A stretch of 32,000 bases of DNA from Xanthomonas campestris pv. campestris str. ATCC 33913 (lineage in GTDB: Bacteria > Pseudomonadota > Gammaproteobacteria > Xanthomonadales > Xanthomonadaceae): positions 4,256,497 to 4,288,496 of the forward strand of contig NC_003902.1 of NCBI RefSeq assembly GCF_000007145.1, written 5' to 3'. The number at the start of each line of letters is the position of its first letter. The stretch's first letter is position 1. Positions 13,667 through 19,173 of the stretch are shown here, in pieces. The notes beneath the pieces are model-generated. The model was not told the DNA's origin. It ran no database searches and worked only from the letters and a program-made list of their open reading frames with translations. A program made the position numbers and the translations under genes.

Positions 13667-14826
13667 GGAACCTCTGAACAACGCACCACAGATACGCGAC
13701 ACTACCCGCCTGATGTTGAGGGGTGATCCATGCAACTGACGTTCGGTGACGCTGAGGGCCTGGGCAAGCGCAAGCAGACGCGCCGGGAGATCTTCCTGGC
13801 CGAGATGGAGCAGGTCGTCCCGTGGCAGCAATTGCTCGGGCTGGTCGCGCCGCACTATCCCGTGTCGGGCCGGCCAGGTCGGCAGCCGTACGCACTGGCG
13901 ACGATGTTGCGGATTCATTTGCTGCAGCAGTGGTATGCGTTGAGCGATCCGGCGATGGAAGAAGCACTGCACGAGATCCCGACCTTGCGGCGGTTTGCCC
14001 AGCTCGGTGGCTTGGACAACGTTCCGGACGAGACCACGATTCTCAACTTTCGCCGCCTGCTGGAGACCCATGGCCTTGCCGCGCGGATGCTGGAAGCTGT
14101 CAACGCGCATCTGGCGCGCAAGGGCCAGAGCCTGCGGTCGGGCACGATCGTCGATGCGACGCTGATCGCGGCGCCCAGTTCGACCAAGAACGCCGACCAT
14201 GCGCGCGACCCCGAGATGCATCAGACCAAGAAGGGCAATCAGTGGTATTTCGGGATGAAGGCGCACATCGGCGTGGATGAATTTTCCGGGTTGGTGCACC
14301 ACGTCCATTGCACGGCCGCCAACGTCGCCGATGTCACGGTGACGCACGCATTGCTGCATGGCAAAGAAGACAGCGTGTTTGGCGACAGCGGCTACACCGG
14401 TGCGGATAAGCGCGAAGAACTGCAGGACTGCGAGGCTGCATTTTTCATTGCTGCCAAGCGTTCGGTGCTTCAAGCCATCGGCAACAAGCGGGAGCGTGCT
14501 CGGGAACAGCGCTGGGAACACTTCAAGGCCAGCGTGCGTGCGAAGGTGGAGCATCCGTTCCGGGTGATCAAGCGCCAGTTCGGTTACACCAAGGTCCGCT
14601 ATCGCGGCCTGGCGAAGAACACCGCGCAGGTGCTGACGCTGTTTGCGCTGTCAAACCTGTGGATGAAGCGAAAGCAGTTATTGCCTGCTATGGGGAGCGT
14701 GCGCCTGTAACGCAGGCAACACCCTGCAAACGCGCCGGAAACGGCAAAAAAATCGAGGATCTGAGCGCCGTCAGCCTGGCCGATGTAGTTGGGCTCATCC
14801 TCCGACGCCGTTGATCAGACCATCCC
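13667..14826 (+). mobile_element. IS5-family insertion sequence (about 1160 bp)
   Basis: Imperfect terminal inverted repeats GGGAACCTCTGAACAACGC and GGGATGGTCTGATCAACGGC (reverse complement). Flanked by TAG on both sides (13664..13666 and 14827..14829). Confidence 0.75.
13730..14710 (+). CDS. IS5-family DDE transposase
   Basis: 326 aa. N-terminal DUF772-type region (REIFLAEMEQVVPWQQL), then IVDATLI, FGDSGY and AKVEHPFRVIKRQFGY. Confidence 0.9.
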   Translation: MQLTFGDAEGLGKRKQTRREIFLAEMEQVVPWQQLLGLVAPHYPVSGRPGRQPYALATMLRIHLLQQWYALSDPAMEEALHEIPTLRRFAQLGGLDNVPDETTILNFRRLLETHGLAARMLEAVNAHLARKGQSLRSGTIVDATLIAAPSSTKNADHARDPEMHQTKKGNQWYFGMKAHIGVDEFSGLVHHVHCTAANVADVTVTHALLHGKEDSVFGDSGYTGADKREELQDCEAAFFIAAKRSVLQAIGNKRERAREQRWEHFKASVRAKVEHPFRVIKRQFGYTKVRYRGLAKNTAQVLTLFALSNLWMKRKQLLPAMGSVRL

Positions 14827-14948: not shown

Positions 14949-16454
14949 GTCGCCCCTGAAAAACCCCCTTCAAGCACCAAGTGTCATCGGCGACAGCGGC
15001 ACGGCGCTAAAGGATGGCCATCCCATCGCCCGCATCCAGGCACGCAAAAACGCGATCCAGCGCAGCAGCCAGCGCAGGTTGTAGCCGGCGGCGCAGCCGA
15101 GTACGTGCAGCGCATCGCCTTGTGCACCTTTCAGCCTGCAGCGACGCAACCTGCAGTCGTCTTTCAGATGTCCGATCACCGGTTCCACCGCCTGCCGTCG
15201 TTTGATCCAGCGCCATTGCCGTCGCGTCAGCGTCTTGGCCTTGCCACGATGGAGCACCTGCACGCCATCGACCTCGCGCCCGCGATAGCCCAGGTCCACG
15301 ATCGCCACCGTCGGTTCTACGCTCAGATCCTGCAGCAACCCGCGTGTCTGCTCCAGCTGCTCGGCCAAGGTGTCGCCGTCGTACGGGTTGCCCGGGAAGC
15401 TACGCGCACCCACGACCAATCCCTTGCAGGCGGTGACCGCAATGCCGACCTTGACGCCGAATTCGTACGCTTGACGCGCCTTGCCCTTACCGATGCATTC
15501 CACTTCCGGGGCATGCAATGCGTACAGTTTTTGTTTGTCCTTCGGACGCTGCGTGTACAGCCGTTGCGCACGTTCCAGCCAGACCGCGATGCGCTCGCGC
15601 ACGCCGGGTTCCACCTGGTCCAGCTTGCGCGCGATATCGCGCAACACCCGCCCCAAGACCGTGCGTTGACGTCGCAGCACGCGCTGCATGCGCTTGAACT
15701 GGCGTGCATGCGCATAGCGGCCCGCCTTGCGGCTCAGGGCCGGACCTTGCCGTGCGTAGCTCTGCCGCAACCCGATGCCGTAACGCTTGGCCAGCAGCAC
15801 CAGTTTCTTGCGTGCCACCTCCAGCAACCGACTATCGGTCGGATAGGCAATCGCCTTTTCCTGCACCGTGGTGTCCACGATCACCCGCGACAACTCGCGT
15901 GCGTCCACCGCCTGCATGGCATGTGCAGCGTTGATGGTGTGTGCCAGCAACTCTTCCATCCCCGCTTCGTCAAGCCGCTGACGCCAGCGCGTCAGCGAGC
16001 TGGCATCGCACGGCAAGCGCGTCTGGAACACGACCTCGCCAGTGAAAAACTGCCAATACGGATTTTCCAGCCAACGCTCGCACACCGCCTCATCGGACAG
16101 GTCGTAGGCGTGTTTGAGGTAGAGCAAACCGGCGATCAGCCGCACCGGCAATGCCGGCCGACCGCCACCAGCCTGGGTGGCCGGCAAGCGCGATGAAAGT
16201 GCTTGCTCCAACGCCGTCCACGGCATCCGTTGGCTCAGCTGCGCCAGCGGATGCCGCAGATCGATCTGGTTCTCCAGGCGCGAACGAAACAACTCCTCGG
16301 CAGGCATGTGCTCGGCAGCAGGACGGCGTGTATGCATGAGTGGAAATTGCCAGAAACCAGCCTTCAGCGTAGCGAAAACTGGTAGTTCTGGCACGCCACT
16401 GCAGACATCAAGGCCTTGCGGGCGTTGGGTGATTGGGGGTTTTTCAGGGGCGAC
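14949..16454 (-). mobile_element. IS5-family (long-transposase subgroup) insertion sequence, 1506 bp
   Basis: 20-bp perfect terminal inverted repeats GTCGCCCCTGAAAAACCCCC at 14949 and, as reverse complement, at 16454. Confidence 0.85.
14970..16394 (-). CDS. IS5-family DDE transposase (474 aa)
   Basis: DUF772-like N-terminus (LRHPLAQLSQRMPWTALEQAL), then IVDTTVQEKAIAYPTDSRLL, VDLGYRG and AVEPVIGHLK. Confidence 0.9.
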   Translation of the reverse strand: MPELPVFATLKAGFWQFPLMHTRRPAAEHMPAEELFRSRLENQIDLRHPLAQLSQRMPWTALEQALSSRLPATQAGGGRPALPVRLIAGLLYLKHAYDLSDEAVCERWLENPYWQFFTGEVVFQTRLPCDASSLTRWRQRLDEAGMEELLAHTINAAHAMQAVDARELSRVIVDTTVQEKAIAYPTDSRLLEVARKKLVLLAKRYGIGLRQSYARQGPALSRKAGRYAHARQFKRMQRVLRRQRTVLGRVLRDIARKLDQVEPGVRERIAVWLERAQRLYTQRPKDKQKLYALHAPEVECIGKGKARQAYEFGVKVGIAVTACKGLVVGARSFPGNPYDGDTLAEQLEQTRGLLQDLSVEPTVAIVDLGYRGREVDGVQVLHRGKAKTLTRRQWRWIKRRQAVEPVIGHLKDDCRLRRCRLKGAQGDALHVLGCAAGYNLRWLLRWIAFLRAWMRAMGWPSFSAVPLSPMTLGA

Positions 16455-16530
16455 TATGTACCCCCGTACACTCTGGTTCCTCCGCGCCGTCCGCGCCCAC
16501 CTGACGGCTGCTCGCTACGTTTTGTTAGCC
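16455..16530. repeat. dispersed intergenic repeat, copy A
   Basis: About 80% similar to 29771..29847. Shared cores are GTTCCTCCGCGCCGTCCGC and TGCTCGCTACGTTTT. Confidence 0.5.
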
Positions 16531-16748
16531 GCGCTAAGTCGCACATTGCGTCCGATCTGCATCCAGCTTGCGCAGGCCACACGCAATGGTAAGTGGCCCT
16601 CCTGGGCGAATGATGCGACGTGGAGTGCTGCGCGCAACGTCAGTGTGACTCGGGGTAGGCGAGAAGGTAGCGCGAACGCGCAGCTGCACTTTTCCGTTGC
16701 CGATGAAACAGTGGCACGCCCGAAACGTGCGTGTTATCAATGCATCCC

Positions 16749-16832
16749 ATGAACGCACCCCGCAGCCAATTTTATTTTTGGTACTACGGTTTTCCGATGC
16801 CGCTGGCGGAGGAAGGAGTGCGCTCACCCTGA
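16749..16832 (+). CDS. candidate aromatic-amino-acid leader peptide (MNAPRSQFYFWYYGFPMPLAEEGVRSP)
   Basis: 27 codons containing the run F-Y-F-W-Y-Y-G-F (codons at 16770..16793). An in-frame alternative ATG lies at 16740. The ORF ends 27 nt before a strong intrinsic terminator and about 105 nt before aroG. Confidence 0.55.
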   Translation: MNAPRSQFYFWYYGFPMPLAEEGVRSP

Positions 16833-16859
16833 AGGAAACTTCAGCAGCATTCCCGAAAA

Positions 16860-16887
16860 GCCGCCAGCGCACACTGGCGGCTTTTTT
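16860..16887 (+). terminator. intrinsic terminator (attenuator) between the leader ORF and aroG
   Basis: GCCGCCAG-CGCACA-CTGGCGGC followed by T6. The 5' arm (CCGCCAGCG, 16861..16869) can alternatively pair with CGCTGGCGG at 16801..16809 inside the leader ORF. Confidence 0.7.
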
Positions 16888-16938
16888 GTTGCCGCCTCGC
16901 CTGGCTTCCCTGATGCACCGCCGACCCGAGACAACGTT

Positions 16939-18012
16939 ATGCCGCCGCTGACCGATGACCTGCGTATCCGCAAGATCGAACCGTTGACCCCGCCCTCGCA
17001 GCTGCTGTCGCTGCTGCCCTGCGATGAGCGCGCTTCCGAAACCGTCACCAACGCACGTGCCGCCCTGCACGAGATTCTGCACGGGCGCGATGACCGCCTG
17101 GCGGTGGTGATCGGCCCCTGTTCGATCCACGACCCTGTGGCTGCCATGGAGTACGCGCAGCGTCTGCGCCCCTTGCGTGAGCAGTTTGGCGACGCGCTGG
17201 AAATCGTGATGCGCGTGTACTTCGAAAAGCCGCGCACCACCATTGGCTGGAAGGGCCTGATCAACGACCCGGACCTGGATGGCAGTTTCCAGATCAACAA
17301 GGGCCTGCGCGTGGCGCGTGGCTTGCTGCGCGATATCAACAACCTCGGCCTGCCGGCCGGCGTGGAATTTCTCGACATCATCTCGCCGCAGTACATCGCT
17401 GACTTGGTGGCCTGGGGCGCGATCGGTGCGCGGACCACCGAAAGCCAGGTGCATCGCGAAATGGCCTCCGGCCTGTCGTGCCCAGTGGGGTTCAAGAACG
17501 GCACCGGTGGCGACGTCAAGATTGCCGTGGACGCGGTGGGTGCGGCCTCGCATCCGCATCATTTCCTGGCGGTGACCAAGGATGGCCACACGGCGGTGGC
17601 GGCCACCGCGGGCAACCCGGATTGTCATGTGATTTTGCGTGGCGGCAAGCAGCCTAACTTCGACGCGGCCAATGTGGAAGCATCCAGCCAGGTGCTCAAC
17701 AAGGCCGGCTTGCCGGCGCGGCTGATGATCGACGCCAGCCACGCCAACAGCGGCAAGAACCCGGACAACCAGCCCAAGGTCATCGACGACATCGCCACGC
17801 AGCTGGAGGGCGGCGAGACGCGCATCGTTGGCGTGATGGTGGAAAGCCACCTGGTCGGCGGCCGGCAGGAACTGGTGCCGGGCGGCACGCTGACCTACGG
17901 CCAAAGCATCACCGACGGCTGCCTGGATTGGGACGCCTCGCTGCAGGTGCTGGAGCGCTTGGCGATTGCGGTGCGTGCACGTCGTGCGCGGCGGGTTGCC
18001 GAGGCTGCGTGA
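16939..18012 (+). CDS. aroG: 3-deoxy-7-phosphoheptulonate (DAHP) synthase, class I
   Basis: 357 aa. Contains VIGPCSIHD, RVYFEKPRTTIGWKGLINDP, GARTTESQVHRE, KNGT and IDASHANS. The isozyme label (G, F or H) cannot be resolved from sequence. Confidence 0.9.
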   Translation: MPPLTDDLRIRKIEPLTPPSQLLSLLPCDERASETVTNARAALHEILHGRDDRLAVVIGPCSIHDPVAAMEYAQRLRPLREQFGDALEIVMRVYFEKPRTTIGWKGLINDPDLDGSFQINKGLRVARGLLRDINNLGLPAGVEFLDIISPQYIADLVAWGAIGARTTESQVHREMASGLSCPVGFKNGTGGDVKIAVDAVGAASHPHHFLAVTKDGHTAVAATAGNPDCHVILRGGKQPNFDAANVEASSQVLNKAGLPARLMIDASHANSGKNPDNQPKVIDDIATQLEGGETRIVGVMVESHLVGGRQELVPGGTLTYGQSITDGCLDWDASLQVLERLAIAVRARRARRVAEAA

Positions 18013-18041
18013 TCGTTGAGGCGGTGGCGTGAGAATACGAG

Positions 18042-18133
18042 GCTTCGCCCGCACCCTCATCCGGCGCTCCGCGCCACCTTCTCCCGGTGGGAGAAGGGAT
18101 AAAGCCCCTCTCCCGCCGGGAGAGGGGTTGGGG
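18042..18133. repeat. REP-like compound palindrome
   Basis: Outer arms GCACCCTCA and TGAGGGTGC enclose two sub-hairpins, CCTTCTCCC-GGT-GGGAGAAGG and CCCCTCTCCC-GCC-GGGAGAGGGG. Confidence 0.6.
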
Positions 18134-18530
18134 TGAGGGTGCGGCGGAAGACAGCCATCCCAAGCCGTGTGCCTGCAACTGACCTGACGCCGCAACAAGC
18201 GCGCATGTGCAACAGATTCAAAGCCCAGAACATTTGAGTGCAGCACATCAAACGCGCAGCACATTCATGGTTCGGCATCGTCAAGCAGCGTTCGAGATAT
18301 TCAAAGCGCAACACATAAAAAACGCGGCGCATCCAAACGCAGCACATCCAAACAAGTGCTTGCACGCCGGCGGCGATAATCTCGTTGGCACGAGCGGCCA
18401 CCAAAACGTATCGAGTAGCCTGACGGTGAGCACACTAGTGTTGGTCGATGGCGTTCTAAAACAAGAACGTCGGGGCGGCACAGGGAGCCGGCCCGACGGA
18501 TTGGACACCACCCAGTGATGACCCGATGCC

Positions 18531-18822: not shown

Positions 18823-19173
18823 GCAGCAACAACAACAGCAACAACAACAACAACAACAACAACAACAGCAACAACAACAACAGCAACAACAGCAACAACA
18901 GCAACAACAGCAACAACAGCAACAACAGCAACAACAGCAACAACAGCAACAGCAACAGCAATAACAGCAACAGCAACAGCAATAGCAATAGCAATAGCAA
19001 TAGCAACAGCAACAGCAACAGCAACAGCAATAGCAACAGCAATAGCAACAGCAATAGCAACAGCAATAGCAACAGCAATAGCAATAGCAATAGCAACAGC
19101 AATAGCAATAGCAACAGCAATAGCAATAGCAATAGCAACAGCAATAGCAATAGCAACAGCAATAGCAATAGCA
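18823..19173. repeat. 351-bp uninterrupted triplet array built only of GCA, ACA and ATA (117 triplets)
   Basis: Read directly from the sequence. Order is an (ACA)n run, then (GCA ACA ACA)x7, then (GCA ACA)n, then a mosaic of (GCA ATA) and (GCA ACA). Confidence 0.95.

Follow-up and report, generated by a model that had tools for sequence, protein, structure and literature searches.

Ribosome-mediated transcription attenuation is a textbook mechanism, represented by the leaders trpL, pheL, hisL and leuL. Such leaders combine a short open reading frame (ORF) carrying codons for the product of the pathway with four pairing RNA segments and a terminator before the first gene, and stalling of the ribosome leads to the antiterminator. 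Here we analyse an element of comparable layout that lies directly upstream of aroG, a 3-deoxy-D-arabino-heptulosonate 7-phosphate (DAHP) synthase gene, in a stretch of 32,000 nucleotides (nt) from Xanthomonas campestris pv. campestris str. ATCC 33913 (contig NC_003902.1, positions 4,256,497 to 4,288,496). This whole stretch is hereafter called the window, and coordinates count from its first nucleotide. Judged from its sequence and from those of its relatives, the element very probably attenuates transcription of the DAHP synthase gene by way of ribosomes translating a leader peptide, and it follows the classical layout of four segments. An earlier note on this DNA had proposed an aromatic-codon leader attenuator of aroG, a proposal strongly supported by in-register conservation in 46 loci, and 4 further ones, from three proteobacterial classes.

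The aroG leader differs from the enteric ones in several respects. Its segment 1 precedes the regulatory codons, whereas the enteric segment 1 contains them, and its segment 2 is part of the ORF, ending 20 nt short of the stop codon. It lacks a Shine-Dalgarno (SD) sequence, is probably leaderless and has no sequence or model similarity to the enteric leaders. In addition, it would control the entry enzyme of the common pathway and not a branch operon. Leaders that respond to more than one amino acid are well established: in Escherichia coli, the ilvGMEDA leader carries Leu, Val and Ile codons and the thr leader Thr and Ile codons, so that the premise of the earlier note that classical leaders sense a single amino acid does not hold. 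As in these two cases, the aroG leader mixes codons of several end products in one leader, such that shortage of any of them could relieve termination; unlike them, its mixture is Phe/Tyr/Trp and its gene encodes DAHP synthase. Leaderless short-ORF attenuators are represented by the polycysteine leaderless short ORFs of mycobacteria. The aroG leader would resemble these as a mini-ORF read from a 5'-terminal AUG without an SD sequence, a status suggested by promoter spacing, although it comes from another phylum and carries codons for other amino acids.

Upstream of a DAHP synthase gene, the leader aroR with a Phe-Tyr-Phe motif has been described for aroF of Corynebacterium glutamicum (PMC4046766, PMC11802643), where attenuation was relieved experimentally under Phe limitation and Tyr supply had no effect (PMC11802643). 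The earlier note had regarded a mixed aromatic leader on DAHP synthase as a distinct regulatory logic, a view overtaken by this published precedent. Compared by description only, aroR is a functional analogue of the leader studied here, being a mixed aromatic leader peptide before a DAHP synthase gene. It is actinobacterial and has three aromatic codons and no Trp, whereas the proteobacterial leaders have 4-10 aromatic codons and usually one Trp. Homology between the two is unlikely, because the phyla and the DAHP synthase genes differ. The Acholeplasma uORFC-13-1 motif likewise places a candidate upstream ORF with Phe codons directly upstream of a terminator and aroF, the 3-deoxy-7-phosphoheptulonate synthase gene (PMC8632094). 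That motif is restricted to Acholeplasma, consists of a U-run with Phe codons only and has another structure; no Rfam match to it arose on the present loci. The element described here is almost certainly an aromatic-codon attenuator of aroG, an apparently unannotated addition to a known type that brings no new regulatory logic.

Leader ORF and pairing segments upstream of aroG

The gene that would be regulated, aroG (16939..18012, forward strand), encodes a class I DAHP synthase of 357 amino acids that matches TIGR00034 with 526 bits and PF00793 with 303 bits. Upstream of it on the same strand, the sequence and the ORF list give an ATG-started leader ORF of 27 codons plus stop (MNAPRSQFYFWYYGFPMPLAEEGVRSP; 16749..16832), whose stop codon occupies 16830-16832. 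Codons 8-15 (16770..16793, +; UUU UAU UUU UGG UAC UAC GGU UUU) form the putative regulatory run FYFWYYGF, in which seven of eight codons are aromatic: three Phe, three Tyr and one Trp. A scan of all six frames of the 32-kb window found at least six aromatic codons within eight consecutive ones at this single site. A second in-frame ATG is present at 16740, upstream of the leader ATG at 16749. It is not conserved (ATA in locus L002) and overlaps a predicted -10 element, described below. The ORF, the run and the additional ATG are all located where the earlier note had placed them.

An intrinsic terminator at 16860-16887, composed of GCCGCCAG-CGCACA-CTGGCGGC and T6, begins 27 nt after the leader stop codon, and 51 nt separate its U-tract from the aroG ATG at 16939; the terminator and both gaps were correctly described before. 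Pairing of AAAA with UUUU extends the stem to 12 base pairs (bp; 16856-16885), and the isolated hairpin folds at -20.1 kcal/mol. The terminator pattern was counted once in the 32-kb window against zero expected. A consensus scan of 16300-17100 for promoters and terminators returned no terminator and no promoter, and a separate hairpin scan recovered the terminator. The miss by the consensus scan is a false negative, likely because pairing between the A-run and the U-run consumes the U-tract required after the stem.

Within the leader ORF, CGCTGGCGG (CGCUGGCGG; 16801-16809) matches the complement of CCGCCAGCG (16861-16869) at every position, which yields a 9-bp antiterminator exclusive of the terminator. 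This pairing, already proposed in the earlier note, is conserved and is the minimum free energy (MFE) structure of the RNA to 16873. Only 0.9% of dinucleotide shuffles of the leader contained a complement of at least 9 nt to the terminator 5' arm (P=0.009). A further segment, missed in the earlier note, would turn these pairings into a 1:2 / 2:3 / 3:4 design. Segment 1 (CCCCGCAGC; 16758..16766, +), the putative anti-antiterminator strand, pairs with 16802-16812 in the MFE structures of the RNA to 16816 and of the full leader. Segment 2 (CGCUGGCGGAGG; 16801..16812, +) has segment 1 or segment 3 as alternative partners. Segment 3 (16856..16869, +) comprises the A-run, the terminator 5' arm AAAAGCCGCCAG and CG, with 16861-16869 pairing with segment 2, and segment 4 (CUGGCGGC) with the U-tract (16874..16887, +) is the 3' part of the intrinsic terminator, which is also the RNAalifold consensus. 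Segments 1 and 3 are similar to each other, as are segments 2 and 4. A central hairpin (16815..16853, +) is formed by 16815-16821 with 16847-16853 and by 16829-16834 with 16839-16844; it includes the leader stop codon and is seen in the folds constrained to the terminator and to the antiterminator, as well as in the MFE structure of 16730-16900.

Two short sequences adjoin these segments. A purine-rich, SD-like sequence, GGAGGAAGGAG (16809-16819), lies within the leader ORF directly after segment 2 and constitutes the 5' side of the central hairpin, together with AUUCC at 16847-16853. Directly after the U-tract, GCCGCC (16891-16896) is able to pair with segment 4, and when it is included, in the fold of 16730-16900, the MFE structure is the antiterminated form. 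CATGCCGCC or GGCCGCC sequences are likewise found 3' of the terminator in L001, L002, L005 and L013, and GCCGCC at this position may stabilise read-through transcripts.

Folding yielded both alternative structures that the earlier note had foreseen. The nascent RNA to 16816 has 1:2 as its MFE structure (-17.7 kcal/mol) and the RNA to 16873 has 2:3 (-44.9 kcal/mol). The MFE structure of the complete leader combines 1:2, the central hairpin and 3:4 at -55.9 kcal/mol, and enforcing the antiterminator 2:3 gives -49.7 kcal/mol. The ribosome was modelled as a 30-nt footprint masking the leader RNA. When placed on the aromatic codons 8-13 of the window leader, it leaves segment 3 paired with segment 2 with a probability of 1.0, in agreement with the idea that a stalled ribosome keeps the antiterminator free to form. 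On the last Phe codon, segment 3 pairing drops to 0.38, because the footprint there reaches segment 2. At the best stall position, the family median of segment 3 pairing is 1.0.

Conservation of the leader among Proteobacteria

Relatives were collected by a scan with the DAHP synthase protein, taking one genome per species, which gave 80 loci, or 81 with the window. The full architecture was found directly upstream of the DAHP synthase gene in 46 of the 81 loci, and with a less regular terminator in 4 more (50/81). It comprises an ATG-started ORF of 17-30 codons with 4-10 aromatic codons, a GGCGG-type segment 2 located 8-17 nt past the run, a gap of 36-57 nt, and a CCGCCAG...CUGGCGG terminator with a U-tract. 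The leaders span three proteobacterial classes, represented by Xanthomonadales (Xanthomonas, Stenotrophomonas, Pseudoxanthomonas, Luteimonas and Dyella), Burkholderiales and Rhizobiales (Bradyrhizobium, Mesorhizobium, Devosia and Neorhizobium). Within Burkholderiales they occur in Burkholderiaceae (Burkholderia, Paraburkholderia and Caballeronia), in Oxalobacteraceae (Janthinobacterium, Massilia and Oxalobacter) and in several metagenome-assembled genomes; MSAKFYFYFFWHLRPLADREGC and MITVATSYFWYFSYDSSLAAGGSRSI are examples of leader peptides from relatives. Among the 81 loci examined, those that lack the leader belong to Enterobacterales, Rhodocyclales and Methylophilaceae, among other groups. 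When the enzymes are placed in a neighbour-joining tree, leader-bearing DAHP synthases fall mostly into one clade in which the three classes are intermixed. Therefore, leader and gene seem to travel together, probably by horizontal transfer, as the tree suggests.

Alignment of the regions upstream of aroG orthologues, one of the checks suggested in the earlier note, revealed conservation of the ORF, the aromatic run and the stems, with doubly changed pairs. In the MAFFT alignment A1, made of 44 distinct sequences whose members are related, the terminator pairing 3:4 is maintained in 94.5% of cells, far over slid controls, and the antiterminator pairing 2:3 in 83%, against 13-53% in slid controls; each includes 5 pairs changed on both sides. 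One locus (L037) shows a concerted change of G/C/G to A/U/A in segments 2, 3 and 4, and another (L058) a G-C to A-U change in 2:3 alone. RNAalifold, run on the MAFFT alignment, returned the terminator only. Given that segment 1 is out of register in this alignment, 1:2 was evaluated for each sequence separately. Over the family, the 1:2 duplex has a median energy of -14.4 kcal/mol, compared with -8.4 for shuffles, and p<0.05 was reached in 20 of 46 loci. If segment 3 is left out, the probability that segment 2 pairs with upstream sequence exceeds 0.5 in 37 of the 46 loci (P=0.68 in the window), and a CCGC/CGCC core precedes the aromatic run in 37 of 46, where 12.3 are expected. Support for 1:2 across the family comes from Burkholderiaceae, Bradyrhizobium and Mesorhizobium and is weak in Oxalobacteraceae; the counterpart of segment 1 is UCCGCCAAG in Burkholderia and GUCGCCACCAGC in Bradyrhizobium.

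The two kinds of constraint within the leader can be told apart. The GGCGG core of segment 2 is nearly invariant, and its nucleotides are kept in all three frames relative to the ORF, encoding in the two other frames the unrelated peptides SHWRKG, SRWQPK, RTGGLS and AFGGRE. Since these nucleotides persist across frames, the apparent P-L-A-E/D peptide motif is a secondary consequence of the RNA sequence. In the aromatic run, by contrast, it is the amino acids that are maintained: UUU/UUC and UAU/UAC exchanges occur, and indels come in multiples of three. Among the relatives, L006 included, the distance from segment 2 to the leader stop codon ranges between -1 and 31 nt. This combination of segments conserved as RNA and a run conserved as amino acids matches the prediction for a translated regulatory leader and speaks against an arrest peptide and against leaders that act as riboswitches or bind a protein. 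The near-frozen state of the segments across classes would be explained by each of them having two pairing partners.

Codon choice in the leaders is also distinctive. Family-wide, 111 of 142 Phe codons in leaders are UUU (78%), against 48 of 276 (17%) in the adjacent DAHP synthase genes, an odds ratio of 17, and the Tyr codon UAU is likewise over-represented in leaders (odds ratio 2.4). These counts come from non-independent sequences, and the UUU trend is seen in every clade. The bias towards UUU and UAU fits a leader tuned for slow decoding; alternatively, the leader UUU codons may provide U-runs that pair with the A-run preceding the terminator. Together with the synonymous changes within the aromatic run, the bias to rare codons lends indirect support to the putative translation of the leader. 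Most leaders of the family have exactly one Trp codon, and most of those in Oxalobacteraceae have none.

Candidate promoters stand close to many of the leader ORFs. In the window, a predicted extended -10 element, TGtTATCAA (16732..16740, +), ends 8 nt before the leader ATG. The motif TGnTATCA(A/C) occurs 6-9 nt before the ATG in all nine Xanthomonadales loci, and a -10-like hexamer, often TGn-extended, 5-10 nt before the leader ATG in 24 of the 46 loci. Rhizobiales have a promoter-like layout, GTGACA-17-TAnAnn-6/7-ATG, and in Burkholderiaceae a TTGCCA-17-TATAAA promoter is located farther from the leader ATG, at about 35-45 nt upstream. The spacing between the -10 element and the ATG implies a leaderless or nearly leaderless mini-ORF, and the leader messenger RNA of the window would thus probably begin at or close to its ATG. 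In X. campestris pv. vesicatoria, 14% of mapped messenger RNAs are leaderless (PMC3300014). A conserved TTGCnnATGAAACA motif followed by a small hairpin is found 20-50 nt upstream of the leader ATG (16700-16731 in the window; also in L001-L003), and the stem of this hairpin varies by species, being GCACG/CGTGC in the window and TTCGCG/CGCGAA in L003.

Databases and literature hold little on this leader. No leader family of Rfam 15 was matched at threshold, as judged by E-value for the window and by gathering threshold for 20 + 3 related loci. Weak matches to Thr_leader, Phe_leader, RNAI, RcsR1, asX2 and Bp2_287 cover the terminator and nothing else; Phe_leader (RF01859) and Thr_leader (RF00506) reach about 20 bits against a gathering threshold of 55, on the terminator only. 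Bp2_287 was considered as a Burkholderia version of the leader and rejected, given that it had no match in the Burkholderia loci. None of five leader peptides matched a Pfam or NCBIfam family at E<=10. The few leader ORFs with database entries are named 'hypothetical protein', and six complete genomes with an identical enzyme have no gene call at the leader. A full-text literature search yielded no paper that describes a leader on a DAHP synthase gene from Proteobacteria, and an earlier mention elsewhere is possible.

Proposed mechanism and competing explanations

The sequences themselves show the elements, the mutual exclusion of their pairings, the folding energies, and the conservation and covariation. 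From this arrangement we infer where transcription starts, that the ORF is translated, that ribosomes stall on it, which amino acids are answered and how large the effect is. The attenuator would work as follows. Transcription would begin at the leader ATG (16749) or a few bases from it. When aromatic aminoacyl-transfer RNAs (tRNAs) are plentiful, the ribosome would pass the aromatic codons and open the central hairpin on its way to the stop codon at 16830. There it would sit between segments 2 and 3, and segment 1 would pair again with segment 2 behind it. Segment 3 would then be free for segment 4, the terminator (16856-16887) would form, and a transcript of about 140 nt would stop before aroG. 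Untranslated RNA should terminate too, because 1:2 forms first. When Phe-, Tyr- or Trp-tRNA is scarce, the ribosome would stall on codons 8-13 (16770-16787) and cover segment 1. Segment 2, thus freed, would pair with segment 3 once the latter is transcribed, no terminator would form, and RNA polymerase would enter aroG.

Several observations weigh against this reading or narrow it. No SD-like motif was found in 45 of the 46 leader ORFs, that of the window included, and since the consensus scan also returned no promoter, the case for translation depends on a leaderless start. The 1:2 duplex of the window, at -13.8 kcal/mol against -10.8 for shuffles, has p=0.15, and most Oxalobacteraceae leaders are missing both a clear segment 1 and Trp codons. 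As the aligned sequences are related, shuffle-based scores overstate independence. According to the earlier note, a ribosome at the stop codon would mask segment 2; this part of the proposal failed, given that segment 2 ends 20 nt upstream of the stop and that a ribosome placed on the stop codon of the window leader also gives a 2:3 probability of 1.0. Stop and stall thus look the same at equilibrium in the window, and discrimination between them must be kinetic or steric. When the complete leader is folded at equilibrium under ribosome masks, every scenario favours the terminator, a result uninformative about a kinetic switch. The window leader has a single Trp codon, and sensing of Tyr and Trp cannot be read from the sequence. 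The Phe-Tyr-Phe leader of C. glutamicum answers Phe and not Tyr (PMC11802643), which leaves sensing of three amino acids unproven.

Among the alternatives, the one that survives best, though improbable, is a trans-acting small RNA (sRNA) or small-protein gene upstream of aroG that ends at the terminator, with aroG transcribed from its own promoter downstream. The leader does have its own promoter-like element and a strong terminator, the known sRNA sX9 already lies in the aroG neighbourhood, and trans-acting leader peptides and attenuator RNAs are documented in Sinorhizobium meliloti (PMC7298713). However, all occurrences of the element are immediately in front of a DAHP synthase gene, on its strand and 23-140 nt from its start, in three classes. 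A conserved and covarying antiterminator that overlaps the terminator would have no role in a plain sRNA gene, conservation of the peptide at the amino acid level is limited to the aromatic run, and the consensus scan found no promoter-like site between the terminator and aroG. A milder form of the same explanation would have the element serve a dual function, as the trp attenuator RNA and peptide are reported to do in Sinorhizobium.

The unusual invariance of segments 2, 3 and 4 across classes makes a sequence-specific partner conceivable, such that a protein, a tRNA or a small molecule would drive the switch in the manner of TRAP, T-box or riboswitch systems and the ORF would be incidental. 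This is very unlikely: the in-frame ATG, the aromatic run and the stop are conserved with synonymous variation and indels in threes, and the four-way coupling of the segments would account for their invariance. Moreover, no Rfam family reached threshold in the window leader or in 20 related loci, and there is no conserved aptamer-like domain, as RNAalifold gives the terminator only.

Less likely still is an arrest peptide like TnaC, which would sense free aromatic amino acids inside the ribosome and not tRNA charging. A P-x-A-[E/D/V] stretch follows the aromatic run in most leaders, and the aromatic residues would line the exit tunnel. Yet the residues that the leaders share towards the C-terminus fall on segment 2, which keeps its nucleotides in other frames although the amino acids there differ, so that conservation outside the aromatic run follows nucleotides, unlike in arrest peptides of the TnaC type. 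The position of the stop is variable (-1 to 31 nt after segment 2), an intrinsic terminator follows instead of a Rho site and Rho-dependent termination, and the logic would be inverted, with abundance inducing a biosynthetic gene. Finally, an ORF and a complementarity arisen by chance beside an ordinary terminator, as might be supposed where GC-rich genomes give many spurious ORFs and complementarities and where 1:2 of the window alone is not significant, are scarcely credible and refuted by the comparative data, given the uniqueness of the aromatic run in the window, the shuffle P=0.009 and the in-register conservation at about 50 loci.

Surroundings of aroG and significance of the leader

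The sRNA sX9 (Rfam RF02228, 92.8 bits) lies at 16456-16530 (+), on the same strand as the leader and 219 nt upstream of its ATG. Its spacing is identical in two other genomes with an identical DAHP synthase (L081 and L084). In L082, sX9 was not detected, and an insertion sequence (IS) transposase gene (52-1032) ends at the expected sX9 site. Transposase-like ORFs of IS elements are located at 13730-14710 (+) and 14970-16394 (-), just upstream of sX9 and aroG, and the upstream neighbour of aroG depends on the strain, being a HipA_C gene or differing IS elements. Two antisense ORFs, at 16534-18264 (-; 576 amino acids) and 16824-17519 (-; 231 amino acids), overlap aroG and the leader, and both resemble the spurious reading frames that GC-rich DNA commonly contains. 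Downstream of aroG, a hexanucleotide microsatellite, (CAGCAA)n, extends over 18824-19173 with about 58 copies and 87% matches and yields long low-complexity ORFs in several frames of both strands. In the Stenotrophomonas maltophilia locus L002, a tandem glycine riboswitch (3474-3680, -; aptamers of 45.5 and 40.1 bits) is encoded on the other strand downstream of aroG and is unrelated to the leader.

DAHP synthase is the control point of carbon flow into the shikimate pathway. To our knowledge, control of its gene is well known only in enteric bacteria, through repression by TyrR and TrpR. It is much less understood in plant pathogens such as Xanthomonas and Burkholderia, in opportunists such as Stenotrophomonas and in symbionts such as Bradyrhizobium and Mesorhizobium. 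In the window, the attenuator would account for an unannotated interval of about 190 nt from the leader ATG to the start of aroG. The leader family represents a gap in both RNA and small-ORF annotation, and its mechanism is directly testable. For the production of aromatic compounds, deletion of the terminator or recoding of the leader would make it a simple engineering target. The mechanism itself would not surprise a specialist; what is added is its breadth, the probable leaderless start and the mixture of codons for three amino acids. The leader is a natural case for the study of leaderless leader peptides, and the lone Trp codon amid Phe and Tyr codons offers a clean one for multivalent sensing.

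It is possible, although we hold it somewhat short of probable, that the window contains the first member to be recognised of an attenuator family so far undescribed, which is distributed across Alpha-, Beta- and Gammaproteobacteria and associated with one clade of class I DAHP synthases. That tentative reading is a joint one. It holds that the mini-ORF has no SD sequence and is leaderless in about half of the lineages, that the leader reads Phe, Tyr and usually one Trp with a preference for the rare codon UUU, and that the four pairing segments are almost frozen across classes through their dual partners. As part of the same reading, the lineage-specific mixture of codons may allow one to predict, for bacteria in which this step is not under TyrR/TrpR-type control, the amino acids that govern carbon entry into the shikimate pathway.

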